Shown: positions 2,282 through 49,672, counted from the first letter of the stretch. The stretch is 64,000 nucleotides of DNA from an uncultured Gammaproteobacteria bacterium (GCA_964496095.1 CAZBWU010000004.1:21366-85365); one strand, 5' to 3'. Numbers and translations: made by a program. The notes: generated by a model from the sequence alone, not told the origin.

Positions 2282-2365
2282 GCCCTGGTGGTGAAATTGG
2301 TAGACACAAGGGACTTAAAATCCCTCGCCGAAAGGCATGCGGGTTCGATTCCCGCCTAGGGCACA
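2282..2365 (+). tRNA. tRNA-Leu (anticodon TAA) with long variable arm
   Basis: Acceptor GCCCTGG/CTAGGGC, T-arm GCGGGTTCGATTCCCGC, anticodon loop CTTAAAA, long extra arm. Confidence 0.8.
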
Positions 2366-2366
2366 T

Positions 2367-2397
2367 ACAAAAAAACTCACGAAAGTGAGTTTTTTTG
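2367..2397 (+). terminator. Rho-independent terminator after tRNA-Leu
   Basis: AAAAAAACTCAC-GAAA-GTGAGTTTTTTT hairpin with T-run. Confidence 0.7.
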
Positions 2398-2530
2398 TAT
2401 TATAACTTTATGAGAGTTTAGGATTTATTCTTGGAAGGAATTAAATATACCATCGAGCGACCTTGCTATTCTCGGTATTTAATAAGTATGATAAAATTTA
2501 CATTAAGAATTGATTTAAAATATTTTTTAT

Positions 2531-3022
2531 ATGCAAAAAGCGCCTGTCCCCGCAAATGAAAAAGAGCGTGTCTGCGCTCTTGAAGGGTTAAAACTTTTGG
2601 ATACAGCCTCTGAAGAAAGATTTGATCGTCTGACAAAAGAAGCAACTAGTAGGTTTTCTGTGCCAATTTCCACCATCACACTGATAGATAAAGATCGTGA
2701 ATGGTTCAAATCAGCCCAAGGTCTACAAGCAAAAGAGGGTCCCAGAGGCGTATCTTTTTGTGGGCATGCATTAATGTCGCAAATAGTAATGATTATTCCT
2801 GACACTTCAGCTGATCCACGCTTTGCAGATAATCCAATGGTTAAGGGGAAACCATTTATCAGGTTCTATGCTGGCAAATCTTTGTATGACCACAAAAGCA
2901 ATCTGCCTGTAGGTGTGTTTTGTATAAAAGACCATAAGCCAAGAGAAATGAGTGTAAAAGATCTGAGCGACTTCCTTGATTTAGCTGACAGAGCCGAAAA
3001 GGAGATTAATAAACATATATAA
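2531..3022 (+). CDS. Stand-alone GAF domain protein
   Basis: GAF-like pattern (ERF..L...A...F..P.S.ITLID.DR.WFKS..GL.....PR..SFC). Confidence 0.55.
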   Translation: MQKAPVPANEKERVCALEGLKLLDTASEERFDRLTKEATSRFSVPISTITLIDKDREWFKSAQGLQAKEGPRGVSFCGHALMSQIVMIIPDTSADPRFADNPMVKGKPFIRFYAGKSLYDHKSNLPVGVFCIKDHKPREMSVKDLSDFLDLADRAEKEINKHI

Positions 3023-3040
3023 AATTTAAATGTTAATTGT

Positions 3041-3436
3041 ATGAAACCTAGGTATGTAATTTTAGCTTTATTAGTAATAGTTTTTGGTTTGGTTTATTAT
3101 TTTGTTTTGTATAAAACAAAAACAAAACCCGTAAATAATAAACAATTTCAACTTTCTTTGCAAGAAATGGTTAATGCAAGCACAACCCTGGAAGGTAAAG
3201 CGACTAACGCCAAGGCTGGGGCAATGGTATTGGTTGGTAATGATCCAGTGTATATAGATGGCCTAGATAGTTGGTCAAAGAATTTTCTTGATAAGCAAGT
3301 TTCAATCTCCGGTAAATTAGTTGTCAAAAGTTTTATACCTAAAGCCGAAGTTAATAAAAGTGGCGAGATAAGTCAAGGTGGGAGCGGGGATGAAGATTAT
3401 GTTTTGGAAGATGTGGATGTAAAAATGTATAAATAA
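3041..3436 (+). CDS. Hypothetical small membrane-anchored or secreted protein
   Basis: N-terminal hydrophobic helix (ILALLVIVFGLVYYFVLY); no recognisable domain. Confidence 0.4.
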   Translation: MKPRYVILALLVIVFGLVYYFVLYKTKTKPVNNKQFQLSLQEMVNASTTLEGKATNAKAGAMVLVGNDPVYIDGLDSWSKNFLDKQVSISGKLVVKSFIPKAEVNKSGEISQGGSGDEDYVLEDVDVKMYK

Positions 3437-3489
3437 GATGTAAATTTAATTTTTTATTTCTTCTATTCATTTCATGGTATAATATCCCC

Positions 3490-5289
3490 ATGAAAAAGAT
3501 TTTAAACCAGAAAGGTTTTACTCTGCTCGAAGTCGTAGTGGCCAGCGGAATTTTTTTGATTTTTGCGCTGGGGATTTATGGGGGAGTTAACTTAACTTTT
3601 AAAATTGTTTATCAGTCGCGCATGAAAATTTTGGAAACTGCTATTTTGGCTGAGCGGCTAGAAGTTGCGCGCAATCTGCCTTATGATCAAGTGGGGATTA
3701 TAAATGGTGTGCCAAGCGGTTTGTTACCTTCCTCTACTACCACTGTTCGTAATGGCCAAACATTTATCCTGGTGACTACAGTGAGAAATATAGATGATGC
3801 TTTTGATGGTACCTTGGGAGGAACACCAAACGATTTATCTCCCGCTGACTATAAATTGGTAGAGATATCAGCAATATGTAATAACTGTTTTCAAAAGACG
3901 CCAGTTATTTTGAGCACTGTAGTTGCGCCCAAACAACTTGAGGGAGCTAGTCAGAACGGTGCTTTGTTTATTCAAGTATTTGATTATAATGGCTTGCCTG
4001 TAGTAGGTGCTAGTGTGAGTGTTACAAACACTTCCAAGAACCCTAGTACTATCATTAGTGATGTCACCGACAGTAGTGGCTATTTGCGAATTGTAGATGC
4101 CCCGACTGGCACCTTGAGCTACAATATTAATGTTAGTAAATCTGGTTATTCAAGTGATTATACAATACCAGTTAGTTTATCTGTGCCAACCCCGGCTAAA
4201 CCCCCAGCCAACGTAGTCGGTCAAACAATTACTGATATTAGTTTTGCTATAGACAAACTAAGTAACCTGGATTTGCATTTTCTTACTCCCGCTTGTGTGG
4301 CTGTGCCAAATCAATCTTTTAATATTCATGGTGAAAAAATCATTGGCACCGATGCTAGTGATGTAAATATTTATAAGTACAACAAAAGTTTGACTGCTAA
4401 CGGTAGTGGAAATTATAGTTTTCCAAATTTTGAATGGGATAAATATCATGTTGCTATTAGTGGGGTTGTCTACAATATTGGTGGATCCACTCCGCTTCTT
4501 CCGTTTGATATTACTCCAGGCCTTACTCAAGATGCGTCTGTTATCCTAGAGCCATACTCAGCTAATTCTTTGCTTGTAAAAGTAAAAGACGCTGGTACGG
4601 GCTTACCGCTTTCTGACGCCACCATACATCTGACCGCCACTGGTTATGACGAAACTAGACTTACGGGTTATGGCTATGTGCGCCAGACAGATTGGAGTGG
4701 AGGTAGTGGTCAGGCAAGTTATTCCAATCAGACAAAATATTTTGCTGATAATGGAAATATAAAAAATAATTTACCAGCCGGAGATTTAAAATTAAAAAAA
4801 GTTGGTAATTCATATTTGAATAGCGGTACGTTAGAATCTTCCACTTTTGATCTTGGTACTACCGCCAATTTTAATAATATTATTTTCTCACCGTTATCTC
4901 AACCGGCGCAAACGGGTGTTAATCCTATTACATTTCAACTGGCTACTAGTAATTCTAGCAGTCTGGCTAGTTGGACATATAAAGGGCCAGATGGCACTGT
5001 TAATACATACTATACAGCTACCAGCACTATTATCTGGAGCGGAAATAACGATAATCGCTATTTGAGGTATAAGGTATTTTTAAATACTGCTAATACTGCT
5101 TTTACTCCTACTCTATCTGAAGTGGCTTTTACATATATTACTAGTTGTATACCTCCGGGGCAGAAATTTTTTAGTGGGCTATCTGCAGCAACTTATACGT
5201 TGGATGTCTCCCGTTCAGGCTATACAACCAATAATGGTACGGTAGATGTTTCTGGCGCTACCGAAGCGGTCGTAAATCTTTCTCCCTAG
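3490..5289 (+). CDS. Large type-IV-pilin-like (pseudopilin) protein with prepilin-type N-terminal cleavage/methylation domain
   Basis: N-terminus KGFTLLEVVVASGIFLIFALGIYGG matches class III signal (G/FTLxE + hydrophobic helix). Long Ser/Thr/Asn/Gly-rich beta-rich ectodomain. Confidence 0.7.
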   Translation: MKKILNQKGFTLLEVVVASGIFLIFALGIYGGVNLTFKIVYQSRMKILETAILAERLEVARNLPYDQVGIINGVPSGLLPSSTTTVRNGQTFILVTTVRNIDDAFDGTLGGTPNDLSPADYKLVEISAICNNCFQKTPVILSTVVAPKQLEGASQNGALFIQVFDYNGLPVVGASVSVTNTSKNPSTIISDVTDSSGYLRIVDAPTGTLSYNINVSKSGYSSDYTIPVSLSVPTPAKPPANVVGQTITDISFAIDKLSNLDLHFLTPACVAVPNQSFNIHGEKIIGTDASDVNIYKYNKSLTANGSGNYSFPNFEWDKYHVAISGVVYNIGGSTPLLPFDITPGLTQDASVILEPYSANSLLVKVKDAGTGLPLSDATIHLTATGYDETRLTGYGYVRQTDWSGGSGQASYSNQTKYFADNGNIKNNLPAGDLKLKKVGNSYLNSGTLESSTFDLGTTANFNNIIFSPLSQPAQTGVNPITFQLATSNSSSLASWTYKGPDGTVNTYYTATSTIIWSGNNDNRYLRYKVFLNTANTAFTPTLSEVAFTYITSCIPPGQKFFSGLSAATYTLDVSRSGYTTNNGTVDVSGATEAVVNLSP

Positions 5290-5293
5290 GAGT

Positions 5294-5911
5294 ATGTATT
5301 TGGTAGATAATTTAAAAAATAATAATAAAGGTATAACGCTAGTTGAACTATTGGTAGCTACGGGCATTTTTGTATTTTTAGCTGCCGGAATTGTGTCTCT
5401 TTATTTGACTAGTCGAAAATATAACGACATTGTTTGGGAGCAGTTAAAAACTCAGAATGAAGGCAGAAAAGTAGTGCAAGATTTTACCAATGAACTTCGT
5501 ATTGCTTCACAATCAAGTGTCGGTGCTTATCCTGTAGCGGGAGCGTCTAGTACTGAAATTATTTTTTATACCAATCTTGATAGTGATACTTTGATGGAAA
5601 GAGTGAGGTATTTTTTTTCAGGTAGAATTTTAAAAAAAGGCGTTATTAAGCCAACGGGCAATCCGCTTATCTATAATTCGGTGAATGAAGTTATTACCGA
5701 AGTGGCCCACGATGTAGTCACGTCCACTTCAAAGTTATTATATTATGATTCTAATTTTACAGGCTCAGAAACTCATTTAGTTAGCCCAATAAGCGTTACT
5801 AGTATTAGGGTGGTTGGTATTCAGCTAACATTGGAGGAAGACCCAAATGCATCACCTGTGCCGTTTTTTATAGAATCAAAAGTAATGCTGCGAAACTTGA
5901 AGGACAACTAG
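5294..5911 (+). CDS. Type-IV-pilin-like (minor pilin/pseudopilin) protein
   Basis: N-terminus KGITLVELLVATGIFVFLAAGIVSLY is a prepilin-type methylation motif. Confidence 0.65.
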   Translation: MYLVDNLKNNNKGITLVELLVATGIFVFLAAGIVSLYLTSRKYNDIVWEQLKTQNEGRKVVQDFTNELRIASQSSVGAYPVAGASSTEIIFYTNLDSDTLMERVRYFFSGRILKKGVIKPTGNPLIYNSVNEVITEVAHDVVTSTSKLLYYDSNFTGSETHLVSPISVTSIRVVGIQLTLEEDPNASPVPFFIESKVMLRNLKDN

Positions 5912-5920
5912 GTTATTTTT

Positions 5921-7318
5921 ATGATATTAGAAAATTTTAAAAATTTAATAAAAACTTTTTCTCAAAACACACGTGGAAATATTTTGTTGTTTGTTATGAT
6001 TTTTGGCACGATTAGTTTGTCTATTATTATCATCGGTGTTTCTGGTTATGCTATTTCTGAAAACTCAGCCTCTAATAGGAAACATAATAGTGAAATGGCC
6101 TTGCAAATTGCCGATGCTGGAATTAATTATTATCGTTGGCATTTAGCTCATAATAAGACCGATTATTATGACGGTAATAGTTCTAGTACGCCTGGGCCAT
6201 ATGTACATAGTTACACAGATAAGTTAGGTAATGTTATTGGTCATTTCTCTTTAGAGATTACTCCGCCTACTTTAGGTTCCAGTATTATTATTATTGAATC
6301 TACAGGTTGGCTGGATGCCCAGCCAAATAGTCGTGTAAAAATAAAGGCCAGAGTTGGTTTTCCAGCTTTGACTGATTATTCATTTTTGACAGCCACTGAT
6401 GTTTGGATTGGAGATACTGAAACTACTCATGGTAAATTTCATGCCAACGGTGGTATTAGGTTTGATGGTATCACAGACGCGCCTATTACCAGCGCTATGG
6501 CAACTTACACTTGTAAAGTTAGTCATGGTTGTGGAAACCAAACTAAATCTGGAATTTGGGGTACAGGCGGGCCAAACACTTATTGGAGTTACCCTCAGCC
6601 AGCCAAAGATTTTACTGCGATTACAGGGGTATTGGCTCAGATTGAAGATAACGCTAATCCCGATAACGGGGGGTTAAAGTTTACTTCTTCAGGTCAACAG
6701 GGTTGGCGTCTTAAATTTACTTCTTCTAGCCAGTTTGTTGCCTACAAAGTTTTGACTACAGATTGTTATAAAGCCAAAGATATAGGGGATAATAACTATT
6801 TTTGGCCATGTATTGATATTAAAACTACTGACGCCGGCACTACCTATGATTTACCAAGCAATGGTTTTATTTTTGTTGATGATAATGTTTGGGTTGATGG
6901 GGTGGTGCATGGTCGAGTCACCGTAGGTACTTCAGTTGGTAAGTCTATTATTATAAATGGAAATATTACTTATTATGCCAAAGATGGTACTGATGTGCTT
7001 GGGCTTATGGCTGAGCAAAATATTCTTATCCCGCACAACTCCCCCGACAGCCTAGAAGTTGACGGGGCGCTACTTGCCAAGAGCGGAGCTGCAAAAAGAT
7101 ATTATTATCCAAGTGATAAAAAAACGAGTTTGCTCATCTATGGTTCTATTATTACCTACAAAACTTGGACTTGGAGTTGGTCTTCTGGAGGGGGAGTTAT
7201 TATATCTGGCTATGTAAATACCGACGCTACCTATGATGCTAATCTTACTTATGGTCCGCCACCAGGTTTTCCAGTAGGTTCTGAATATAACCTATTGAGT
7301 TGGGAAGTTTTAAAATAA
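5921..7318 (+). CDS. Hypothetical membrane-anchored protein in the pilin cluster (PilX-like minor pilin candidate)
   Basis: Single N-terminal TM (ILLFVMIFGTISLSIIIIGVSGYAI), large Gly/Thr-rich ectodomain, directly downstream of two prepilin genes. Confidence 0.4.
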   Translation: MILENFKNLIKTFSQNTRGNILLFVMIFGTISLSIIIIGVSGYAISENSASNRKHNSEMALQIADAGINYYRWHLAHNKTDYYDGNSSSTPGPYVHSYTDKLGNVIGHFSLEITPPTLGSSIIIIESTGWLDAQPNSRVKIKARVGFPALTDYSFLTATDVWIGDTETTHGKFHANGGIRFDGITDAPITSAMATYTCKVSHGCGNQTKSGIWGTGGPNTYWSYPQPAKDFTAITGVLAQIEDNANPDNGGLKFTSSGQQGWRLKFTSSSQFVAYKVLTTDCYKAKDIGDNNYFWPCIDIKTTDAGTTYDLPSNGFIFVDDNVWVDGVVHGRVTVGTSVGKSIIINGNITYYAKDGTDVLGLMAEQNILIPHNSPDSLEVDGALLAKSGAAKRYYYPSDKKTSLLIYGSIITYKTWTWSWSSGGGVIISGYVNTDATYDANLTYGPPPGFPVGSEYNLLSWEVLK

Positions 7319-7399
7319 TGCAGTTAGCATTGAAAAGAATTGGTACATTTGCTACAATTAAAAACAGGATTTGATATTTATAACTTGAATTATAATGAT

Positions 7400-8266
7400 A
7401 TGTCTTCAATTCGTAAACTCGTTATTCCGGTTGCAGGTCTTGGTACAAGATTTTTACCTGCTACCAAAGCTCAGCCAAAAGAAATGTTACCAGTCGTTGA
7501 TAAACCCATTATTCAGTATGTGGTAGAGGATGCTGTAAAGTCAGGTATCACCGATATTATTTTAGTTACTGGTCCAAGCAAGCGCGCGGTTGAGGATCAT
7601 TTTAGCCCCAATTATGAATTGGTTAATTTGTTAAAAAAACAAGGCAAAGAAGATGTAGCTGAAGCAATCAAAAAGATTGCCGATATGGCCAATTTTATCT
7701 TTGTTAGGCAAAAAGGACCTTATGGAAATGGTACACCGGTGTTATGCGCCAAAAATATAGTCGGAGATGAACCCTTTGCGGTAATGTGGGGCGACGAATT
7801 CTTTTATACACCAAAGAAACCGCAACTTCAGCAGTTGATTGAGGTTTATGAAAAATATGGAGACCCGGTTTTGACTACTTATAAAGTAAGTGATGAAGAT
7901 ACCAAGAAGTACGGCATTATTGACGCGCTTCAAGTCGAAGACGGTGTGTTCAAAGTTAAAAAAATTGTAGAAAAACCAGGTCCAGAAAAAGCTCCATCCC
8001 GACTAGCTAGTTTGGGTGGTTTTATTTTTACCCCAGATATATTTGAAGCCTTAGAAAAAACTAAAATTGGCAAAGGTGGGGAGCTGTGGTTGGCAGATGC
8101 AAATGAAAAAGTTCTCAAAAAGAGGTCGATTTATGCTTGCTTAATCGAAGGTACCTATTACGACACTGGTTCCAAACTTGGTTATCTTAAGGCAAATGTT
8201 GATTTTGCTTTGCGCGATAAGAATTTATCAAAAGACTTTAGAGATTATTTGAAGAGTGTGGTATAA
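7400..8266 (+). CDS. galU: UTP--glucose-1-phosphate uridylyltransferase. The likely start is the in-frame ATG at about 7400 (MSSIRK); the track ORF begins at 7340.
   Basis: [40 protein letters not shown] is the canonical GalU N-terminus. Confidence 0.85.
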   Translation: [288 protein letters not shown]

Positions 8267-8366
8267 TTTAAGGAGCAGTTCTTAGTGAGTAAGAAGTAAT
8301 TCAAAATTTTTTTAGTCTACCTACCATTACACTGTAATTTAATCCTACTTTTCCTGTCAGGCATCT

Positions 8367-9740
8367 ATGAAAAAAAGAATATTCTTTTTTCTCGCGCTGG
8401 CCATGGCATTGCCCCTGGCTGGTTTGGGTTGTAAAGGTTTGTCTGCCCAGCAACAGGCAGCGATTGCGCCTGTCACCTTGGAATACTGGACTGTCTTTGA
8501 TGATGTGGATGCTTTGCAAGCACAGATAGATAAGTATAAAGCAGACAGGCCATATCTAACAATCAATTTAAAACAACTTCGTTTGGATGAGCTGTACCCT
8601 CGTTTGTTAGAAGCCCTGGCAGAGGATCGTGGTCCGGATATTATCTCTGTGCGCAATCGTTTCATGAATTTTTATAAGCCAAAACTGGCCACCATGCCTG
8701 ACAGTGTTTCTGATACAACCGTGCTAGTAGAAAAAACTAACTTTAACACCAAGACAACTGTCACTACTGTGAAGCAAAATTTGCCAAGCTTAACTCAGGT
8801 AGATAAAGAGTATGTCCAATCAGTAGGTAAAGACGTCGTTATTGAGGGTAAAATTTATGGCTTGCCATTGTCTTTGGATAATTTGGCACTATATTATAAT
8901 AAAGACCTGTTGGATCGCGCTGGTATTGCCGAGCCACCAAAAAATTGGGATGATTTTCAAAAAGATGTAAAAAAACTCGCTAAATTTGATAAAAATTTTA
9001 CTAAAATTTTACAGTCAGGAGCAGCGATTGGTACAGGGAATAATATTCCTGGTTTTGATGATCTGCTTTATATTCTCTTCAAACAAAGTAATATTAGTTT
9101 TGTAAATAAAAATGGACAAGCAGTGTTTAATAATCCCGGAAATAACGAAGCCAATCCAGCAATGTCCGTTATGAATTTCTATACCGATTTTGCCAATTCG
9201 GAGCGAGATACTTATACTTGGAACGAAGATATGGACAATGCTGTAGATAAATTTGTAAATGGTTCTCTCGCGTTTTTCTTTGGATATAGTTATCATTTGC
9301 CAGTTATAAAATCTCGAGCTCCTCAGCTCAATTTTTCTATATTACCAATGTTGCAACTTAACCCCGAACAGCCAGTAAACGTGGCTAATTATTGGGTACA
9401 GTCTGTGGTAGATAAATCAAAACATAAAAATGAATCCTGGGGTTTGGTTAATTATTTGACTCATTCCAAAGCCACTAAAGAATATTTAGAAATATCGAAC
9501 CGACCTTCAGCCCTACGAGCCTATATTAGTGGTCAATTAGAAAATGTTGAGCTATATCCGTTTGCTTCCCAGAGCCTAATTGCCGATAGTTGGTATAAGG
9601 GGAAGGATTATGACACGACTGTAAAAGCTCTCAAAGATATGGCTCACGAATGGCTATTACCAGCGCCAGTTGGTCAGGAGTTAAGACAAAAGCAGGAAGT
9701 GCTAAATAGGGCTGCAGCTAAAATAAATCAAACTTTATGA
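8367..9740 (+). CDS. Lipoprotein, extracellular solute-binding protein (ABC sugar-type, family 1); no permease adjacent
   Basis: Signal peptide with lipobox (LAGLGCKG) and a MalE-like SBP core (YGLPLSLDNLALYYNKDLL). Its stop overlaps the start of the first pilin-like gene (ATGA). Confidence 0.55.
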   Translation: MKKRIFFFLALAMALPLAGLGCKGLSAQQQAAIAPVTLEYWTVFDDVDALQAQIDKYKADRPYLTINLKQLRLDELYPRLLEALAEDRGPDIISVRNRFMNFYKPKLATMPDSVSDTTVLVEKTNFNTKTTVTTVKQNLPSLTQVDKEYVQSVGKDVVIEGKIYGLPLSLDNLALYYNKDLLDRAGIAEPPKNWDDFQKDVKKLAKFDKNFTKILQSGAAIGTGNNIPGFDDLLYILFKQSNISFVNKNGQAVFNNPGNNEANPAMSVMNFYTDFANSERDTYTWNEDMDNAVDKFVNGSLAFFFGYSYHLPVIKSRAPQLNFSILPMLQLNPEQPVNVANYWVQSVVDKSKHKNESWGLVNYLTHSKATKEYLEISNRPSALRAYISGQLENVELYPFASQSLIADSWYKGKDYDTTVKALKDMAHEWLLPAPVGQELRQKQEVLNRAAAKINQTL

Positions 9741-10177
9741 GTAGGTTTGTAAAAATAGTAGTGTCATTTTTAATTATAATTTCGGCGTTTTTTAATGTTA
9801 CCCAAGTCTTTGCCCAAGGAGTCGATGGTAAAGACTCTTCTTTGGTTGGTAAATTTATTCCAAAATGTGTTATAGATCCACCCACTGGAAATCCTGCAGA
9901 TGAAGGTCAATGTCGTAGTATTAGTATTTTTGTTATTTTACTTTTAAATGTTGCAAATTATTTATTTAGTATTGTGGGCGCGCTGGCTTTATTATTTTTT
10001 GTTTATGGTGGTTTTACCCTTATTTTATCTAGAGGAAATTCTGAACAAACTGGGAAAGGTGTAGAGATAATAACAGCCGCTGTTATTGGGTTAGTGGTAG
10101 TTTTTGGTGCCTATATGTTGGTGCGTTTCTTAGGAGAGGCTATAGGATTAAAGAGTGAATTTATTCTTAATCCTTGA
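9737..10177 (+). CDS. VirB2/TrbC-like pilin-family protein (array member 1)
   Basis: Signal peptide, short Cys-containing ectodomain, then TM-GGFTLILSRGNSEQTGKG-TM core shared with downstream paralogs. Confidence 0.55.
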   Translation: MSRFVKIVVSFLIIISAFFNVTQVFAQGVDGKDSSLVGKFIPKCVIDPPTGNPADEGQCRSISIFVILLLNVANYLFSIVGALALLFFVYGGFTLILSRGNSEQTGKGVEIITAAVIGLVVVFGAYMLVRFLGEAIGLKSEFILNP

Positions 10178-10181
10178 TTTT

Positions 10182-10973
10182 ATGAAGGGTTTAAGAAAGA
10201 AAAATATTTTAGTTAGTTTGTTATTACTATTTGTGGTATTTGTATTTATACCTACTAACGAAGCTTTAGCCGCAAAATGGGGTTGTTTAGACCCGAGCGG
10301 GGAGTGTATAGAAATAGAATCGGAAGATAGTACGAAAGCCGCTTTTGGTTGTAATGAAAAATGTGGTCAAGATTGCGCAATGTCTCGTAGATTAGGGGGC
10401 TGTCCTGTATTTGGTTGTATTCAAAAAAGAAGATGTGAGGATAAACCAGCTGCTTTTTATGGTGATTATTCTAGAAAAAGTTGTCCGGATAGGCCCCTTG
10501 CTTTTCCTTGTCCGTCACCAAGAGATTGGGGTTGTTTTGAAGCTGAAAAATGCCATAATGTTGTAGCTAAGATTTATGAAGAGGCACAGGATTTATGTCC
10601 CAACGGTAAAGCTACCCAAGATTCTTGTGGAGACGAAATGTCACTATCGAGCACTCTTAAAGAAAAGTACGGGCCCTTGGCAGGTACTAGTTTGATAGAT
10701 CTGCAAAAAAAAGCTGCTAAACAGTTAAACCCGGGGAATATTAGTGAACCAAAAAAACTTATTTCTCGCGCCATTAATTTAATGACCGCCTTTATCGGTT
10801 CTATTGCCTTGCTTTTGTATGTAGTGGCTGGATTTTTGTGGATGACGGCTAGTGGCGCTAGTGAGCAAGTGGATAAAGCTAAAAAAATATTGGTTTGGAC
10901 TACTTTAGGTGTGCTGGTCATGTTGTTTAGTTATATCTTAACAAATACATTTTTTGAACTTATTCCAAAGTAG
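10182..10973 (+). CDS. VirB2/TrbC-like pilin-family protein with large Cys-rich N-terminal ectodomain (array member 2). The track ORF 10155.. starts with GTG; the ATG at about 10182 (MKGLRKK) gives a clean signal peptide.
   Basis: C-terminal core LLLYVVAGFLWMTASGASEQVDKAKKILVWTTLGVLVMLFSYIL; about 16 Cys in the ectodomain. Confidence 0.55.
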   Translation: MKGLRKKNILVSLLLLFVVFVFIPTNEALAAKWGCLDPSGECIEIESEDSTKAAFGCNEKCGQDCAMSRRLGGCPVFGCIQKRRCEDKPAAFYGDYSRKSCPDRPLAFPCPSPRDWGCFEAEKCHNVVAKIYEEAQDLCPNGKATQDSCGDEMSLSSTLKEKYGPLAGTSLIDLQKKAAKQLNPGNISEPKKLISRAINLMTAFIGSIALLLYVVAGFLWMTASGASEQVDKAKKILVWTTLGVLVMLFSYILTNTFFELIPK

Positions 10974-10987
10974 GAAGATAAGCAAGT

Positions 10988-11488
10988 ATGAAAAAAATAT
11001 TTTTAGTATCTATTTTAGCTCTGACTTTTATTTTTAGTATGACGACGAGTCAAGTAAATGCGCAAACTGGTACACATCAATCCCTCGCGTTTATTGGTGA
11101 TTTTATTGATCAGGCAGGTGAGTTGCTTATTGATCAATTGCCTACACCAGATTCGTCACTACAACCTTCAACTACAGGCGATGGTAATCAATCCGGCTGC
11201 ACCTTTAACGGCCAAGGGGAAGAAAAATGCCAATTAGAAAATCCGATTGGAGCAACAGAAGTACCTGCTTTAATTAAACAAGTTATTACAGTCGCCTTGG
11301 GGGTTATAGGGTCTTTTACCTTGTTAATGCTAGTTTGGGGAGGCTTACAATGGCTAACTTCGGCAGGCAATCCTGAAAAAGTCAGCGCTGGTACTCAGAC
11401 AATGGTTTGGGCAGTAATTGGTGTTATGGTTGTGTTTGCCAGTTATGTATTATTATCCACTTTCTTGAATATTTTTGTTGGTGGATAA
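10988..11488 (+). CDS. VirB2/TrbC-like pilin-family protein (array member 3)
   Basis: Signal peptide (…SQVNA), Cys pair in ectodomain, core LMLVWGGLQWLTSAGNPEKVSAGTQTMVWAVIGVMVVF. Confidence 0.55.
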   Translation: MKKIFLVSILALTFIFSMTTSQVNAQTGTHQSLAFIGDFIDQAGELLIDQLPTPDSSLQPSTTGDGNQSGCTFNGQGEEKCQLENPIGATEVPALIKQVITVALGVIGSFTLLMLVWGGLQWLTSAGNPEKVSAGTQTMVWAVIGVMVVFASYVLLSTFLNIFVGG

Positions 11489-11587
11489 ATTGGGAAATGA
11501 TAAAAAATATGGTATAATATTTGAAGTTAAATATTTTAGATTTCCTAGTTTGAAACGTATGATTTTATATAGAAAGGGGGTGAAAAT

Positions 11588-11977
11588 ATGATGAAATTGA
11601 AAAAAATATTTGCTATTTTTGCTATGGCTTTAGTGATGGTATCTGCAACTCCAGTATTGGTAAGTGCTGATATTGGATCAGAAGCTGATCCGTTGGGTTT
11701 AAACCCAGTAGCTGCTACTGGTCTTGGTAAAAAAGATATTCGCGTAACAATAGCAAGTATCATTAAAACTGCAATGGGATTACTTGGTATCGTTGCTGTA
11801 GTTATTATCCTTATCGGTGGTTTTAAATGGATGACAGCTGGTGGAAGTGAAGAAGGTGCTGATGAAGGTAAAAAATATATCTTCTCAGGTATTATTGGTT
11901 TGGCCATCATTTTGTCGGCCTACGCTCTCGCTACTTATGTTATCAATAGCTTGATTCAAGCCACAACCGGCGTTTAG
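11588..11977 (+). CDS. VirB2/TrbC-like pilin-family protein (array member 4)
   Basis: Signal peptide, core IILIGGFKWMTAGGSEEGADEGKKYIFSGIIGLAIILSAYAL; RBS GGGGGTG upstream. Confidence 0.55.
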   Translation: MMKLKKIFAIFAMALVMVSATPVLVSADIGSEADPLGLNPVAATGLGKKDIRVTIASIIKTAMGLLGIVAVVIILIGGFKWMTAGGSEEGADEGKKYIFSGIIGLAIILSAYALATYVINSLIQATTGV

Positions 11978-12093
11978 TTCTTTAAACAGAGAATAAGAGG
12001 CGCGTTTGATCTGTTTGCTTTCCTAAGTAAACATTTCCCATGGGAATCAGACGCGCCATCCTCTGTTAAAATATACCTGTCAATTCGACCAAA

Positions 12094-12168
12094 GTGGAGG
12101 AATACCTTAAACATAGTGTTTGCAAAAACCAAGTTTAAGGCATCCCTCGGCTACGCTCGGGATGACAA
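12094..12168 (+). repeat. Dispersed palindromic repeat, family A (copy 1)
   Basis: GTGGAGGAATACCTTAAACATAGTGTTTGCAAAAACCAAGTTTAAGGCATCCCTCGGCTACGCTCGGGATGACAAAC is near-identical to 49595-49672. Confidence 0.6.
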
Positions 12169-12190
12169 ACGTTTTTCAATAAAGTGTATG

Positions 12191-12802
12191 TTTAAAAAAA
12201 CATTTTTGATTTTAGCTTTACTGGGTTTTATAACACCCGTTTTTGTTTTTGCAGATAAGTATGGTATAGACAAAGCTGCTAACGGAACAGACTTGATTCA
12301 AAGCTCTCTGTCTGTGCCTGAATTAATCGGAAGTGTTATTGGGACCGCCCTATCATTTGTCGGTATAATATTTTTCCTTTTGATTTTATATGCTGGTTTT
12401 CTGTGGATGACCGCATTTGGTAATGATGAAAAAGTGACAAGTGCAAAAAGTATTATGGAGCACGCGATTTTGGGTTTGATCATAGTTCTTTCTGCTTATG
12501 CTATTTCTAAATTTGTATTTAGTAATCTGCCAGGTGGTGGTGGGCAAACAACTCCAGCTAGCGCTAAGGGCTGTTGTGTTAATCCAGCAACCGGTGGTCA
12601 GATAGAGAATTTAGAATCGCAGTGTGTTCCTAACGCCCAAAATCCTAGAACATGGAAGGCCGGACCGTGTGTTGTTGGTTGTTGCTATGTAACAGTGCCT
12701 CCCGCAGACTGTGAGCCAAGAGCGATGGGCCAAGCAGAATGTCAATTGTGGGGTAATAGAGGTAGTTGGCAACAGGGGGCTTGTGCAAATTCCTGTCCTT
12801 AA
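12191..12802 (+). CDS. VirB2/TrbC-like pilin-family protein with Cys-rich C-terminal extension (array member 5). The likely start is about 12191 (MFKKTFLILALLGF); the track ORF 12116.. runs through an upstream repeat element.
   Basis: Core LILYAGFLWMTAFGNDEKVTSAKSIMEHAILGLIIVLSAYAI, followed by a C-terminal tail of about 90 aa with about 12 Cys. Confidence 0.5.
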   Translation, partial: FKKTFLILALLGFITPVFVFADKYGIDKAANGTDLIQSSLSVPELIGSVIGTALSFVGIIFFLLILYAGFLWMTAFGNDEKVTSAKSIMEHAILGLIIVLSAYAISKFVFSNLPGGGGQTTPASAKGCCVNPATGGQIENLESQCVPNAQNPRTWKAGPCVVGCCYVTVPPADCEPRAMGQAECQLWGNRGSWQQGACANSCP

Positions 12803-12823
12803 TTTTAAATAAGTTGATGTATT

Positions 12824-13198
12824 ATGAAAAAAATAATCATACCTGTGATAATAATTGGTATATTTTCATTAGTAGTTTTTGCCTCAGCCCAGGGTTTGCA
12901 AGGCGCTAGCGGAATGTTGGAAAAAGTTGGTGGTGCAAATGGTGAGAATATCGGTGTAACAGGGGATCTGCCTACAGCTATATCAACAGTAATTAAAGCC
13001 GTTCTATCTTTAGTGGGGACTATATTTTTGGTTTTGACTATCTATGCAGGTATTATGTGGATGACAGCTGCTGGGGATGAAGAAAAAGTTACAAAAGCAA
13101 CCTCAATTATAAGGATGGCAGTGATTGGTTTGGTAATAGTGATGTCTGCTTATGCTATTACTTACTTTGTGACAAGTAAGTTGGGCGCTTTAAAATAA
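12824..13198 (+). CDS. VirB2/TrbC-like pilin-family protein (array member 6)
   Basis: Core TIYAGIMWMTAAGDEEKVTKATSIIRMAVIGLVIVMSAYAI; near-identical core to member 7. Confidence 0.6.
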   Translation: MKKIIIPVIIIGIFSLVVFASAQGLQGASGMLEKVGGANGENIGVTGDLPTAISTVIKAVLSLVGTIFLVLTIYAGIMWMTAAGDEEKVTKATSIIRMAVIGLVIVMSAYAITYFVTSKLGALK

Positions 13199-13245
13199 AA
13201 TTAATATATGGGCTTAAAGCTCGTATAGTCTCATTCGTTTCGATT

Positions 13246-13620
13246 ATGAAAAAATACTTTTTAGCATTTTTGGTAAGTATAAGTTTGTTTGGAGGTTTAG
13301 TTGTGCCTGTTTTAGCTCAAACTGAACCTGATTTGTCTGTTCAGGTTGCTGAAAAAAGCGGTTATGGTCAAAATGGTGCACCTAATATATCTGAAACTGT
13401 TGGTAGAATAATTAGAATAATCTTAGGATTACTCGGTACTATATTTTTAGGCCTGACCGTATACGCAGGCGTGCTGTGGATGACAGCTGCTGGGGATGAA
13501 GAAAAAGTTACAAAAGCAACTGGAATAATAAGAATGGCAGTAATCGGCCTAATTGTTATTTTGGCTTCTTATAGTCTTAGTTATTTTGTTTTGGATAAAA
13601 TTTTTGAAGCCACATTATAA
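13246..13620 (+). CDS. VirB2/TrbC-like pilin-family protein (array member 7)
   Basis: Core TVYAGVLWMTAAGDEEKVTKATGIIRMAVIGLIVILASYSL. Confidence 0.6.
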   Translation: MKKYFLAFLVSISLFGGLVVPVLAQTEPDLSVQVAEKSGYGQNGAPNISETVGRIIRIILGLLGTIFLGLTVYAGVLWMTAAGDEEKVTKATGIIRMAVIGLIVILASYSLSYFVLDKIFEATL

Positions 13621-13625
13621 AATGT

Positions 13626-14105
13626 ATGAATAATCATAAAAACATTTCTCTAAAAATATTTTTAACACTTTTATTTTTTTCTTCTATTTTTTGTTCTCTT
13701 GTTCCCGGTTCAGTTTTGGCTGCCACTTCTTCGATTCGTGAAGATGCTTTTAGCCAGTTAAATTCTGCCGCCGGTACTGGTGGTGCTGATTTTGGTGCGT
13801 ATAAAGACCCTCGCGAAACAGCCGCAAAAATTATTAAGATAGCCCTTGAGTTAGTAGGGACAATTTTTATTGCGTTGGCAGTTTATGCGGGTTTTTTATG
13901 GATGACAGCTGGGGGCGGGGAAGAAAATATTGCAAAAGCTACCGGTATTTTAAGGATGGCAGTTATAGGGTTGATTATTATTTTGACAGCATATGCCCTT
14001 ACCGTTTTTGTTTTTGAGAGTCTTTTAAGAAGCACTTCAGACAATAATAACGTGACTGATATTTGTCCGGAGAACAACCCAGCTGACCCAAATTGCGCAC
14101 TATAA
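13626..14105 (+). CDS. VirB2/TrbC-like pilin-family protein with short Cys-pair C-tail (array member 8)
   Basis: Core AVYAGFLWMTAGGGEENIAKATGILRMAVIGLIIILTAYAL; C-terminal ...CPENNPADPNCAL. Confidence 0.6.
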   Translation: MNNHKNISLKIFLTLLFFSSIFCSLVPGSVLAATSSIREDAFSQLNSAAGTGGADFGAYKDPRETAAKIIKIALELVGTIFIALAVYAGFLWMTAGGGEENIAKATGILRMAVIGLIIILTAYALTVFVFESLLRSTSDNNNVTDICPENNPADPNCAL

Positions 14106-14111
14106 TAGGTC

Positions 14112-15188
14112 TTACTTTTGTGTAAAAATTCTATCCAAAATAATCTTACTTGCATCTGGGTAAGATTTTTTGGTTATGGAGATAAGATTGGCTAAAATAT
14201 TTTGCACTTTTAATGCAACGTCTTTGGCTGAATGAGCCTTGATTCCATAATGATTTAGTTCTAAGAATGTGGTGTTGTAGTCTTCTTGGCCAGGTATTGG
14301 GTTTATAACAATAATTGGCTTTTGCAAGTACATGGCTTCGGTAATTGTGAGCCCCCCAGCTTTACTAATGATTATATCTGAAACCCTCATCCATTCATCT
14401 ATATTATTTGTTCTATCTATAATCAATAAGTTTTCTGGAGTAGGCGTTTTTATTTTTTTTATAAGTTTATTTTTGTCGCCAATAATAATGAGGTTGATTT
14501 TTCTATCTGGATAATTAGAAAAAACCTCGTTTATAATATCTTCTGGTTTTATTTTTGCATGGGCTGTGGGCAGTAGTAAAATTACTGGCCAATTATTTTT
14601 AAGACCAAGTATAATTTTCAATTCACTAATATTTTTGACTTTCAAAAATTCCGGATTAATGGGGATGCCACTGGCAATGGAGTCTATATTTAATTTGGCT
14701 AGACTATTTTGGATTTCTTCAGTGGCTACAAAGGTGTATCTAATTTTGGTAGATAACCAAGTTTTGTGTGGATGATAATCAGTAATAATAGTATCGATAG
14801 GGGTAGGTAAATTTTTTGGAATGATGGTTTGAGCCAGATAATGTGTTGAAATTATAAAATCAGGCTTAAATTCGTATATTTTTTGTATAAATTTTCTACC
14901 ACCGAAGCTAATAAGCGGTGTTAAATTTTTAAATATTTTTTGAATCAGCCAAGTATCTGTAATTTCGTAGATTATTTTATATAAAAATGGTATGTAGTTG
15001 GTAATAAAATCATATGAATAAATAATTCCCGTATACGGAAACCAGCCTAGGTAGCTTGCAATATCCAGATGTAGAACAGTAATATTTGGATAATTTTTTT
15101 CACAACTAAGCCGAAGAGCTTCGGCTGCTCTAACATGTCCTGTTCCAGTCGAGCATGACAAGATTAGTAATTTTTTATTTGGGGTCAT
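14112..15188 (-). CDS. Glycosyltransferase family 28 (MGDG-synthase/MurG-like diacylglycerol or lipid glycosyltransferase)
   Basis: N-terminal LILSCSTGTGHVRAAEAL and C-terminal ISKAGGLTITEAMYLQKPIIVINPIPGQE resemble the GT28 MGDG synthase/UgtP fold. Confidence 0.6.
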   Translation of the reverse strand: MTPNKKLLILSCSTGTGHVRAAEALRLSCEKNYPNITVLHLDIASYLGWFPYTGIIYSYDFITNYIPFLYKIIYEITDTWLIQKIFKNLTPLISFGGRKFIQKIYEFKPDFIISTHYLAQTIIPKNLPTPIDTIITDYHPHKTWLSTKIRYTFVATEEIQNSLAKLNIDSIASGIPINPEFLKVKNISELKIILGLKNNWPVILLLPTAHAKIKPEDIINEVFSNYPDRKINLIIIGDKNKLIKKIKTPTPENLLIIDRTNNIDEWMRVSDIIISKAGGLTITEAMYLQKPIIVINPIPGQEDYNTTFLELNHYGIKAHSAKDVALKVQNILANLISITKKSYPDASKIILDRIFTQK

Positions 15189-15264
15189 AATTCTAGGGAA
15201 GAGTCAAAAAGAAAGCTCGTTTTCTTTTTGTGAAGTCCGACGAATTAAAAGCTTTGTTTCTAAT

Positions 15265-15340
15265 TGGGGTGGCCTACGGGAGTTGAACCCGTGTTGCGAG
15301 ATCCACAATCTCACGTAATAACCGTTATACCAAGGCCACC
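15265..15340 (-). tRNA. tRNA-His (anticodon GTG)
   Basis: Minus-strand sequence GGTGGCC...anticodon loop TTGTGGA...GGGTTCAACTCCCGT...GGCCACC-CCA. Confidence 0.75.
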
Positions 15341-15352
15341 ATATTATTCCTC

Positions 15353-15427
15353 TGGTGTCTCCAGTAGGAATCGAACCTACACATCCAGCTTAGAAGGCTA
15401 GTGTCCTATCCATTAAACGATGGAGAC
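15353..15427 (-). tRNA. tRNA-Arg (anticodon TCT)
   Basis: Minus-strand GTCTCCA...anticodon loop CTTCTAA...GTAGGTTCGATTCCTAC...TGGAGAC-A. Confidence 0.75.
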
Positions 15428-15522
15428 AAAATAAATAAAGCAAAATTATTCTACCTTATTTTTACAGATTAATCAAGGTGTGATAATATATCATCATAAA
15501 TTTGGTATTTAACTAGTTTTGT

Positions 15523-15876
15523 ATGTTTAAAAAGGTGTTTCTTGTTTTCTTGTTTTCTTTAGCAATGTTATGTTCTGTGGCTCCTGTTTTTGCTCAAGAT
15601 TTTGGTTTACAAGCCACAGCTGAGAAAGCTCAGTATGGTGAAACAACCGACATTTATTCAATGATTGGCACAATTTTGCGTTTAGGGCTCTCGGCAATAG
15701 GTATAATTTTTTTAGCCGTGATGTTTTATGCAGGAATGCGTTGGATGACAGCTCGCGGCAATGAAGAATTTGCTACCAAGGCCAAAGAGGCTATGTTTGC
15801 TGCTATGATGGGCTTTTTCTTGGTTGTTGCTGCTTATGGCCTCACCCTCTTTGTTTTTAGTAAGTTGGTAAAATAA
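15523..15876 (+). CDS. VirB2/TrbC-like pilin-family protein (array member 9, separated from the array by the glycosyltransferase and two tRNAs)
   Basis: Signal peptide, core VMFYAGMRWMTARGNEEFATKAKEAMFAAMMGFFLVVAAYGL. Confidence 0.55.
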   Translation: MFKKVFLVFLFSLAMLCSVAPVFAQDFGLQATAEKAQYGETTDIYSMIGTILRLGLSAIGIIFLAVMFYAGMRWMTARGNEEFATKAKEAMFAAMMGFFLVVAAYGLTLFVFSKLVK

Positions 15877-15910
15877 GAACTTATAATCTTGGCCTTTAGG
15901 AAGCAAGGGG

Positions 15911-15939
15911 TTGACATTTTTGCCGTTTTAAACTATAGT
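15911..15939 (+). promoter_or_regulatory. Consensus sigma70 promoter upstream of rpsO
   Basis: TTGACA, 17-nt spacer, TATAGT. About 80 nt of GC-rich leader follows (CCCGTTACCCGGGGGCGGACGGCC), a possible S15 autoregulatory structure. Confidence 0.6.
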
Positions 15940-16023
15940 TATTACGTTATTTATAAATCCCGTTACCCGGGGGCGGACGGCCAAGAAACATACTCATGGC
16001 CAGCTCGTTAACTATAATTTCGT

Positions 16024-16389
16024 ATGTTAGAAAAAAAGAAAAAGTTAGCCATAATCAAAAAGTTCCAGGTCCATAAAGGAGACACAGGTTCCAATGAAGT
16101 GCAGATTGCAATCTTGGCAGCCGAAATCGACGAATTGGCTCAGCACTTAAAAACTCACCCAAAAGACCACTCTTCCCGCAGAGGCTTGCTCCGCAAGGTC
16201 AGTAGTCGCAGAAACTTAATGCGTTACCTTAAAAAAGAAAACCCAAAAAGTTACGAAGATCTCGTTAAAAAATTAAAAATCAAACAAGTCAGAACTATCA
16301 GTAAACTAGACGGAACTTCTGTTGAGGTAGAAGAAGACTTGGGAGAAGATGTAGATTTAATCGGAGATAGTCATGAGTCTGCAAGTTAG
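16024..16389 (+). CDS. rpsO: 30S ribosomal protein S15 (with C-terminal extension)
   Basis: HKGDTGSNEVQIAILAAEIDELAQHLKTHPKDHSSRRGLLRKVSSRRNLMRYL is the S15 signature. Confidence 0.85.
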   Translation: MLEKKKKLAIIKKFQVHKGDTGSNEVQIAILAAEIDELAQHLKTHPKDHSSRRGLLRKVSSRRNLMRYLKKENPKSYEDLVKKLKIKQVRTISKLDGTSVEVEEDLGEDVDLIGDSHESAS

Positions 16390-16978
16390 TAAAAAAAGAA
16401 ATACCCTTAAACACCCCGATCAAAGAGTAGGGGTGTTTATTGATGTTCAGAATATGTACTACAGCGCCAAAAACCTGTTTGGCGCCAAAGTAAATTTTGG
16501 CAATATTGTCAAAGAAGCTACTGCCGGGCGTAAACTCATTCGCGCCATTGCTTATGTGGTCAGCACCGAGAGTAAAGAAGAACAACCATTTTTTGATGCT
16601 CTGTATAATCTTGGTATAGAAACCAAAGATAAGCCTTTACAGATATTTTGGGGTGGTGAGAAGAAAGCTGACTGGGATGTGGGTTTGGCAGTTGACGCTA
16701 TCAGATTTTCTACAAATTTAGATGCGATAGTACTTGTTGGTGGGGATGGTGACTATGTGCCTTTGGTAGAATACTTGCGAGGTCATGGTAAGCAAGTAGA
16801 AGTAATTTCTTTTGGTGGTACCACTTCAGCCAAGTTGATTGATGCAGCGGACGATTTCATTGACCTTGGTCAAGACAAAGCCAAGTTCCTTATTACCGAC
16901 AAAAGATTTGTGCCAGTAAAAAAAGTTTATCCGCCAAAACAAAACGGAGTAAATCATAATTTAAAAGTTAAAATTTAA
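16373..16978 (+). CDS. NYN-domain (LabA/limkain-like PIN-fold) putative RNase; overlaps the rpsO stop
   Basis: VGVFIDVQNMYYSAKNLFGAKVNFGNIVKE...WDVGLAVDAIRFSTNLDAIVLVGGDGDYVPLVEYLRGHGKQVEV matches the NYN/LabA pattern. Confidence 0.7.
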   Translation: MSLQVSKKRNTLKHPDQRVGVFIDVQNMYYSAKNLFGAKVNFGNIVKEATAGRKLIRAIAYVVSTESKEEQPFFDALYNLGIETKDKPLQIFWGGEKKADWDVGLAVDAIRFSTNLDAIVLVGGDGDYVPLVEYLRGHGKQVEVISFGGTTSAKLIDAADDFIDLGQDKAKFLITDKRFVPVKKVYPPKQNGVNHNLKVKI

Positions 16979-24594: not shown

Positions 24595-27850
<3,256 letters not shown>

Positions 27851-27944
27851 GTGCTTTGATTCTAGAAGTCTTCGTCTGATTTCTAGAAAGACCCTGTTAT
27901 TGTTGGATCAATGAATTGAATTTTTAAAATAAAAAGACCATTTT

Positions 27945-28053
27945 CTTGGTGACATGAGCGATTGGGTCACACCTGTTCCCATCCCGAACACAGAAGTTAA
28001 GCCAATCAGCGCCGATGATAGCCGCAAGGCAAAAGTAGGCCGTCGCCAGGACA
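27945..28053 (+). rRNA. rrf: 5S ribosomal RNA
   Basis: CCCATCCCGAACACAGAAGTTAAGC core with terminal helix CTTGGTGAC/GTCGCCAGG. Flanked by the inverted repeat AAAAAGACCATT...AATGGTCTTTTTTT, which serves as processing stem and terminator. Confidence 0.85.
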
Positions 28054-49562: not shown

Positions 49563-49672
49563 GTTGTCATTCCGACCGAAGGAGCTTCTGCGATTGAGTG
49601 GAGGAATCCCTTAAACATATTATTTGCAAAAACTTAGTATAAGGGATCCCTCGACTTCGCTCGGGATGACAG
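49563..49672 (+). repeat. Dispersed palindromic repeat, family A (copy 2, longest)
   Basis: GTTGTCATTCCGACCGAAGGAG...GGAGGAATCCCTTAAAC...TAAGGGATCCCTCGACTTCGCTCGGGATGACAGC; internal inverted repeats GGAATCCCTTA/TAAGGGATCC and GTCATTCC/GGGATGAC. Confidence 0.6.

Follow-up and report, generated by a model that had tools for sequence, protein, structure and literature searches.

What does a pilin-like protein gain from a long, cysteine-rich domain placed in front of its conserved membrane core? The question is raised by a gene at positions 10182-10973 (+ strand) of the 64,000-nucleotide stretch of DNA analyzed here (the window), one of a series of adjacent pilin genes, for which a reading made from the sequence alone (the sequence-only reading) had proposed a disulfide-knotted or metal-binding module displayed on a pilin scaffold, possibly an adhesin or toxin-like tip or a redox-active surface module. 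Arrays of VirB2-like pilin genes have been described in CPR bacteria, in which 441 arrays of 2-11 genes each were found and a pilin gene lies near virB4 in 1,135 of 1,948 assemblies (Quinonero-Coronel et al. 2025, PMC12102498). They are indispensable to Southlakia epibionticum (Wang et al. 2023, PMC10633639; PMC12857230), no pilus of a CPR T4SS has been reported yet (PMC12857230), and the variability among pilin paralogs has been proposed to serve host adaptation (PMC12102498, PMC10633639). Because these arrays are already known, the array itself is not new; what would be new is the putatively disulfide-rich, modular head carried by this pilin and its replacement between strains.

Results

An intact gene with a cysteine-rich ectodomain

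The target gene is a single uninterrupted ORF of 263 aa with an ATG start and no internal stops, and the coordinates and quoted peptide strings of the sequence-only reading proved exact. A GTG at 10155 would give a longer ORF overlapping the preceding gene and is an unlikely start, because the ATG at 10182 yields a canonical Sec signal peptide and agrees with the starts of the orthologs. This signal peptide runs from a basic n-region (MKGLRKKN) through a hydrophobic core to EALA followed by AK, and cleavage is predicted from the AxA rule after residue 30 (ALA, then AK). The start codon lies 5 nt past the stop of pilin member 1. The protein contains 14 cysteines, rather than the 16 or so first estimated, all within residues 35-149, so that the signal peptide and the hydrophobic C-terminal region are free of them. 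Cysteine makes up 12% of residues 35-149 as against 0.84% in the 61 other ORFs of the window (binomial P=1.4e-12), and the target and member 5 of the array rank highest in cysteine content of all ORFs in the window. The segment between the predicted cleavage site and the first transmembrane helix (residues 31 to ~197) is ~165 aa long, close to the ~170 aa expected, but it is cysteine-rich for just ~120 aa, its final ~33 aa forming a linker. The overall architecture, a pilin-family protein with a long extracytoplasmic cysteine-rich domain ahead of a conserved core, thus agrees with what had been read from the sequence. The CxxxC/CxxC-like spacing noted at the time holds only in part, since the target has no CxxC motif and its C-x3-C spacing is confined to one C-x3-C-x3-C run (residues 57/61/65); the true regularity is a module repeated three times (Table 1).

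Table 1. Coordinates of the target gene's parts and of the surrounding pilin genes in the window
Feature	Position (nt)	Strand	Residues, pattern, and basis
Signal peptide, Sec-type	10182..10271	+	residues 1-30; sequence and hydropathy (hydrophobic segment 3-32)
Module 1, 6 Cys	10278..10409	+	residues 33-76; C-x6-C-x14-C-x3-C-x3-C-x8-CP; module profile i-E 4e-11
Module 2, 4 Cys	10410..10520	+	residues 77-113; C-x5-C-x15-C-x8-CP; module profile i-E 3e-08
Module 3, 4 Cys	10527..10637	+	residues 116-152; C-x5-C-x14-C-x9-C; module profile i-E 7e-09
Conserved linker	10671..10769	+	residues 164-196; GPLAGTS...LNPGNISEP..LISR; alignments A1 and A3
Pilin core	10770..10970	+	residues 197-263; PF18895 match, BLASTP, hydropathy
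Strain-variable cassette	10182..10702	+	signal peptide, three modules, and first linker codons; blastn, breakpoint alignments
Tandem PF18895 array, 8 genes (target is member 2)	9737..14105	+	Pfam
Ninth PF18895 pilin gene	15523..15876	+	Pfam, 28.1 bits

The core belongs to the VirB2/TrbC-type pilins

The C-terminal part of the target comprises a first hydrophobic helix (TM1, 197-223; hydrophobic segment 193-226 by hydropathy), a short basic loop, SGASEQVDKAKKI (224-236), and a second helix (TM2, 237-263; hydrophobic segment 235-262). The Pfam family PF18895 (T4SS_pilin) aligns to residues 191-257 over 66 of its 71 profile positions with 24.7 bits (E 2.5e-05), which narrowly misses the gathering score of 26.6 bits. 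We judge this match to be real because the whole core aligns with array member 3 (BLASTP E 5e-16) and member 6 (E 4e-12), both of which exceed the gathering score themselves, because 5 of the 6 members of the target's pilin subfamily match PF18895, and because the target shows the layout of the family, i.e. a signal peptide and two hydrophobic helices with a short basic loop between them. A precomputed PF18895 match is also present in the orthologs P0008 and P0009. On these sequence grounds the target is a VirB2/TrbC-type (PF18895) pilin paralog despite its sub-threshold score. The array members also weakly match the model of the mycoplasma ICE "Mbov_0395 pilin-like conjugal transfer protein," and the match of the target to PF04956 (TrbC/VirB2) is insignificant at 13.9 bits. 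A type IV pilus pilin was considered and rejected, the target having neither a PF07963 (N_methyl) match nor a class III signal with its G/F-x-x-x-E motif. The designation "pilin" therefore stands for the family, in the sense of a VirB2/TrbC-type T4SS pilin and not of a type IV pilus pilin. The linker that joins core and ectodomain is specific to the target's pilin subfamily and is predicted to be helical by AlphaFold2 (AF2).

A small cysteine-rich module is repeated three times

The ectodomain consists of three diverged modules of ~40 aa, each of which opens with [FW]GC-x5-6-C-x14-15-C and closes with C-P or C-G, and the pattern generalizes across relatives to [FWY]-G-C-x5-9-C-x14-C...C-P. The string aromatic-G-C-x5-6-C-x14-15-C occurs three times in the target, and when the ectodomain was shuffled 100,000 times with its composition preserved, no shuffle reached three occurrences. 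No tandem repeat is detectable at the DNA level within the head, which suggests that the modules are old duplicates. Two module alignments (A2, 22 sequences; A4, 13 sequences) share four core cysteines with an optional extra pair, an aromatic-Gly ahead of the first cysteine, and an Ala in the helix. From alignment A4, AF2 gave a confident model of module 1 (mean pLDDT 86.7) with a beta-beta-alpha-beta order (strands 2-5 and 11-14, helix 19-30, strand 37-40). The full-length model was poor (pLDDT 59), with module 2 at low pLDDT, and showed a hairpin plus helix in modules 1 and 3 (pLDDT 70-75) and two long core helices.

The number of cysteines per module is 4, 6, or 8 in all 28 distinct modules from related Patescibacteria; the count is likewise even in 16 of 17 mature ectodomains, and additional cysteines come and go two at a time. 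Even, pairwise-conserved cysteines in a Sec-exported segment are the pattern taken here to mark a disulfide-bonded extracellular module. Together with the Sec signal, the predicted location outside the membrane, and the absence of CxxC and His motifs, the even counts favor modules that would be disulfide-stapled rather than metal sites. Disulfide-stabilized display is accordingly the part of the earlier "disulfide-knotted module" that we would keep, with the qualification that there are three tandem small modules and not one knot. Many CPR bacteria inhabit anoxic water, and no Dsb or VKOR oxidoreductase was found among the ORFs of at least 100 aa scanned in the 64-kb window; for both reasons we treat disulfide formation as a prediction.

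The module is found on pilins of related Patescibacteria

A word-indexed search of 5.8 billion proteins with the ectodomain returned nothing but the ectodomain itself, and the module profile from A2 gave no scoring candidate in the same set; this index is insensitive here, as a query with linker and core also gave few matches. Exhaustive phmmer of the ectodomain against 1.84 billion cluster representatives, on the other hand, retrieved three true relatives (P0002, P0005, and P0008), all of them pilins that share linker and core and carry cysteine-rich N termini of varied length. Four further phmmer matches were translated CRISPR repeats ("SSPREWGCF") and were rejected on inspection. When the subfamily alignment was used to scan contigs of genomes and metagenomes, 37 loci were obtained, for which the named organisms are mostly Magasanikbacteria/Magasanikiibacteriota or another Patescibacteria group, several MAGs having plainly wrong taxon labels. 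In nearly all of these loci the second pilin of the array has a cysteine-rich ectodomain (protein length 158-444 aa, 3-20 Cys), in many of them with 1-4 module copies, and the pilin at position 3 sometimes has one copy. The profile built from 22 modules recovers modules outside its training set (in L024, L025, L028, L029, L032, L022, and L014), and among 839 ORFs from 43 sequences all its matches up to E 0.003 are pilin-type ORFs. P0005 is a positional ortholog of 263 aa with the same three-module layout, from a syntenic genome with a DNA identity of only ~70%, and the architecture of the target occurs in at least 10 other genomes. The sequence-only reading had staked its proposal on conserved cysteine spacing in orthologs, and this spacing is indeed kept, with the same module present on pilins of related Patescibacteria, so that the proposal passes this test.

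Remote homology gave no functional hint for ectodomain or module. Pfam found nothing beyond two chance-level matches in six module-bearing ectodomains, neither the ectodomain nor the module profile matched any PDB sequence, and Foldseek with the module 1 model against PDB and viral models returned generic beta-beta-alpha-beta mini-proteins only (E>0.2); a Foldseek search with the full-length model is meaningless given the quality of that model. Phage genomes contained no tblastn match to the ectodomain. We found no description in the literature of cysteine-rich heads on CPR VirB2-like pilins, and both the module family and the strain-variable modular head appear to be undescribed.

Several of the relatives merit separate mention. 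In L026 (736-1509), the same pilin slot carries two copies of another cysteine-rich repeat that passes the Pfam WAP "four-disulfide core" threshold (27.3 vs 20.8 bits, E 4e-6), which by sequence would be an unusual bacterial occurrence unless it is a coincidence of cysteine pattern. In L006 (595-1608; P0014 and P0009) a frameshift or stop interrupts the ortholog and leaves a 141-aa cysteine-rich piece and a core piece, and the ENA version of the same gene (P0013) is intact, with 337 aa and at least 25 Cys; from the sequences, the gene in that MAG would be a pseudogene or else contain a sequencing error. Furthermore, MAGs with the syntenic array (L005/L007, DATION010000005.1, and several CAY.../CAZ... 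contigs) are labeled "Candidatus Udaeobacter sp." or "uncultured Gammaproteobacteria," which are probable mislabels because the gene content appears Patescibacteria-like.

The head is exchanged between near-identical strains

A near-identical strain is represented by contig L001 and by L002-L004, i.e. by four contigs from four runs. Compared by blastn with L001, the window is 98.1% identical over 2301-10240 and 93% identical over 10664-16403, whereas the intervening region (~10241-10663) has no nucleotide match to the 656 nt found at the same place in L001. The L001 head has four modules in a protein of 339 aa, as compared with three modules and 263 aa in the window. Linker and core of the two proteins are 97% identical, whereas the heads share just a 33-aa local match; the array genes flanking the target are 92-100% identical in protein, except for members 7 (82%) and 8 (57%). 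These two members form a second variable spot (window 13246-14105, + strand; L001 11217-12066).

On the left side, the breakpoint falls in the interval from the final ~60 nt of member 1 to the target's start codon. On the right side, the GPLAGTS motif is kept in the protein while synonymous sites differ up to ~10702, and the sequences are identical only from ~10703. Breakpoints near the start codon and in the linker indicate that the head was replaced by recombination, and a motif that is conserved in protein yet synonymously diverged points to a diverged allele imported by homologous recombination and not to local mutation or hypermutation. As far as the aligned sequences tell, the head is replaced wholesale between near-identical strains with the core constant, a feature that the sequence-only reading had missed. 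The head in the window is closer to the distant P0005 head (collinear, 3 modules, 51 bits) than to that of L001, although the P0005 core is only 57% identical to the target core. A six-frame search of the window detected no silent donor cassettes and no second copy of the module, so that nothing in the 64 kb speaks for pilS-like stores or a DGR template; DGR-type point mutagenesis is itself ruled out by the change in length (423 vs 656 nt). Two head alleles have thus been seen at this locus. That of the window was assembled independently from SRR10036082 (L043) with 0 nt differences, and SRR10036080 (L044) encodes an identical partial protein of 167 aa that ends at the contig end.

The array and its genomic neighborhood

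The target takes second place in the array, as had been stated from the sequence. The array consists of eight contiguous PF18895 genes, and a ninth pilin gene lies beyond, separated from the array by a glycosyltransferase gene (- strand) and two tRNA genes (15265-15427). Seven of the eight score above the PF18895 gathering score, with the target alone below it, and the array is syntenic in L001 and L005. It includes short paralogs of 124-129 aa that resemble major subunits. Outside the signal peptides, members 1-8 have 2, 14, 2, 0, 10, 0, 0, and 2 cysteines, all even numbers. The surrounding genes are ordinary chromosomal ones (GalU, a solute-binding protein, MGDG synthase, S15, PNPase, 23S rRNA, and tRNAs), together with type IV pseudopilins at 3490-5911 (genes 3490-5289 and 5294-5911) that carry the N-methyl prepilin motif. 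Among the ORFs of at least 100 aa scanned in the 64-kb window, none matched Pfam models of the VirB4, VirB6, VirB3, or VirD4 machinery. Pilin member 1 begins at the very end of the solute-binding-protein gene (8367-9740), its start and the stop of that gene overlapping in the ATGA at 9737-9740, and this overlap, together with the 5 nt between member 1 and the target, suggests that the solute-binding-protein gene and the array may be co-transcribed and translationally coupled. A scan for promoters and terminators in the window gave nothing informative.

Array member 5 (12188-12802, + strand) carries a different cysteine-rich extension, which is C-terminal, after TM2 (residues ~125-204), is preceded by a GGGG linker, and contains 10 cysteines including two CC pairs without a Pfam match; comparable C-terminal cysteine-rich tails occur on the position-2 pilins of L009 and L025. 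With tails at one end and heads at the other, both outward-facing ends of the pilin would serve as display sites.

Two further elements of the window were recorded. An intergenic sequence of ~75 nt is present in two copies of ~85% identity (12093-12167 and 49597-49671), one upstream of pilin member 5 and the other beside tRNA-Arg(ccg), and is also kept in L001; it can form a long hairpin (z = -3.1), its 23-nt core occurs exactly twice vs 0 expected, and it has no Rfam match. A 23S rRNA gene with a group I intron (26704-26906) is followed by 5S rRNA (region 24606-28051), and Rfam reported no 16S rRNA in the window. Introns in rRNA and unlinked rRNA genes are typical of CPR bacteria.

Discussion

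A pilin that may display a variable head

Taken together, these features suggest how the protein may work. The target would be exported by Sec, with its signal peptide cut after ALA30, and would sit in the membrane as a helical hairpin with its basic loop in the cytoplasm, a topology that would leave the N-terminal ~165 aa extracellular. This outside part would comprise three tandem beta-beta-alpha-beta modules of ~40 aa with 2 or 3 disulfides each, joined to the core by a helical linker. Subunits of the F pilus turn their inter-helix loop to the lumen and have their N and C termini on the outside (Costa et al. 2016, PMC5018250), so that an N-terminal addition would decorate a VirB2-type filament, or the cell if the protein stays membrane-bound. 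The head would evolve by gain and loss of modules and by recombinational replacement of the whole cassette on a fixed core, and its most likely role is that of a variable surface, under diversifying selection, for recognition of or adhesion to a host cell or some other partner outside. Its wholesale replacement probably marks the head as a variable surface-recognition device; a predicted position at the surface, modules that come and go, and alleles that are exchanged on an unchanging scaffold are features seen together in recognition and adhesion molecules under diversifying selection.

On balance we lean toward reading the target as a minor VirB2/TrbC-like pilin paralog that displays a disulfide-locked, strain-variable recognition or adhesion head. 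From sequence and models we infer the disulfides, the incorporation into a pilus, and an adhesin or host-specificity function, and the head may act as an adhesin or at the tip. The target is most plausibly a minor, head-bearing subunit, given the eight further paralogs, of which the short ones (124-129 aa) resemble major subunits; a head of ~130 aa on every subunit might clash with the fit of a helical filament, which is a point against this reading. A more specific possibility, which we put forward tentatively, is that such heads are a class, not recognized before, of exchangeable host-recognition cassettes on a constant VirB2-like pilin, displayed on a T4SS pilus and swapped by homologous recombination between lineages, in a manner that recalls phage receptor-binding proteins or pilE/pilS variation. 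If so, the range of host cells open to attachment by the episymbiont would be set or shifted by the head.

Alternative explanations

A serious alternative, although we consider it rather unlikely, is that the PF18895 hairpin is a mere membrane anchor and that the protein is a surface receptor, an adhesin, or a structural protein of the envelope that forms no filament. No T4SS genes were found among the ORFs scanned in the 64-kb window, the array lies among envelope and pilus genes (the pseudopilins at 3490-5911, GalU, the solute-binding protein, and MGDG synthase), and no CPR T4SS pilus has been seen (PMC12857230), all of which would fit a simple anchor. The strong constraint on the core motifs (GFLWMTA...KAK) and the 97% identity between strains, on the other hand, exceed what an anchor needs, and pilin arrays are often linked to a T4SS in other CPR bacteria (PMC12102498).

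Other proposals concern the modules themselves. That they act as a secreted or displayed antimicrobial, toxin, or inhibitor-like effector on the host envelope, akin to defensins or WAP domains, would suit small, disulfide-rich alpha/beta units and the WAP-matching repeats that occupy the same pilin slot in L026 (27.3 vs 20.8 bits), but it is improbable, and the earlier suggestion of a toxin-like tip has no support: the module matches no family of toxins, defensins, or inhibitors in sequence or fold; there is no obvious processing site for release, and the head is covalently joined to the conserved linker and membrane core. Less credible still is a role of the cysteines in metal binding or redox chemistry, as in a surface metallothionein, an Fe-S or zinc site, or a thiol-oxidoreductase. 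The cysteine density of 12% and the one C-x3-C-x3-C run speak for it, but the earlier proposal of a metal-binding or redox-active module has essentially no support, because CxxC and His motifs are lacking and the number of cysteines per module is always even. No conserved His and no cofactor-binding Pfam match were found, extra cysteines change in pairs, the location behind a Sec signal would be extracytoplasmic, and in the model the cysteines flank beta strands and helix, as they do in disulfide-stapled mini-domains. Finally, the source assembly is metagenome-derived and frameshifted versions of such genes exist (P0009/L006), so one may ask whether two ORFs were joined by an assembly or sequencing error, a possibility that the sequence-only reading had itself raised, or whether a chimeric contig mimics a cassette swap. 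Such an artifact is extremely unlikely, as the gene is intact, the identical allele was assembled independently (L043, 0 nt differences, and the identical partial protein of L044), the alternative allele is present on four contigs from four runs (L001-L004), and the same architecture recurs in at least 10 other genomes.

Relation to known systems

The preferred reading, a minor pilin with a variable head, has partial parallels in several known systems. As in the CPR arrays (PMC12102498, PMC10633639), the genes studied here, nine in number, are chromosomal, divergent PF18895 genes in tandem that encode a signal peptide and a two-helix core. These reports describe small pilins and divergence among paralogs but no disulfide-rich modular ectodomain of ~130 aa and no replacement at the strain level; also, unlike the arrays linked to virB4, the one described here has no virB4 among the ORFs of at least 100 aa scanned in the 64 kb. 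TraA of the F pilus and VirB2 of the T pilus (PF04956) share with the target a leader peptide, a hydrophobic helical hairpin, and a basic inter-helix loop, but their mature forms are of ~65-75 aa with no extra domain, and the target organism is an ultra-small CPR bacterium of the monoderm type. In Bartonella and Anaplasma, multiple variable VirB2 copies are thought to serve antigenic variation or host-surface recognition (as cited in PMC12102498); going by that account, it is the pilin itself that varies in these animal pathogens, whereas in the target a separate cysteine-rich head is exchanged on a constant core.

The variable pilins of type IV pili, such as Neisseria PilE/pilS and minor pilins with extra domains, offer a functional analogy only. 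Like PilE, the target combines a conserved assembly core with a hypervariable, putatively disulfide-containing exposed region altered by recombination; unlike PilE, it belongs to another protein family, has no class III signal, and has no donor cassettes in the window. The module also resembles WAP four-disulfide cores, hevein/CBM18, and cysteine-stabilized alpha-beta defensins in its size of ~40 aa, its 2-3 predicted disulfides, and its mixed alpha/beta content, these domains being often in tandem and having extracellular binding functions. This is a resemblance only, as the order and spacing of the module's cysteines (C-x5-9-C-x14-C-[x3-C...C]-...-CP) differ from those of all three.

Significance

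The module adds to the protein catalogue a small-domain family that is apparently undescribed. The ~120-aa segment, or single modules of 40 aa, would provide a defined target for expression, structure determination, binding assays, and antibodies, and the locus offers a place where population metagenomics could address diversifying selection and links between alleles and hosts. From the point of view of the biology of CPR bacteria, the head is a concrete candidate for the host-contacting part of an apparatus that is essential in the one species examined.
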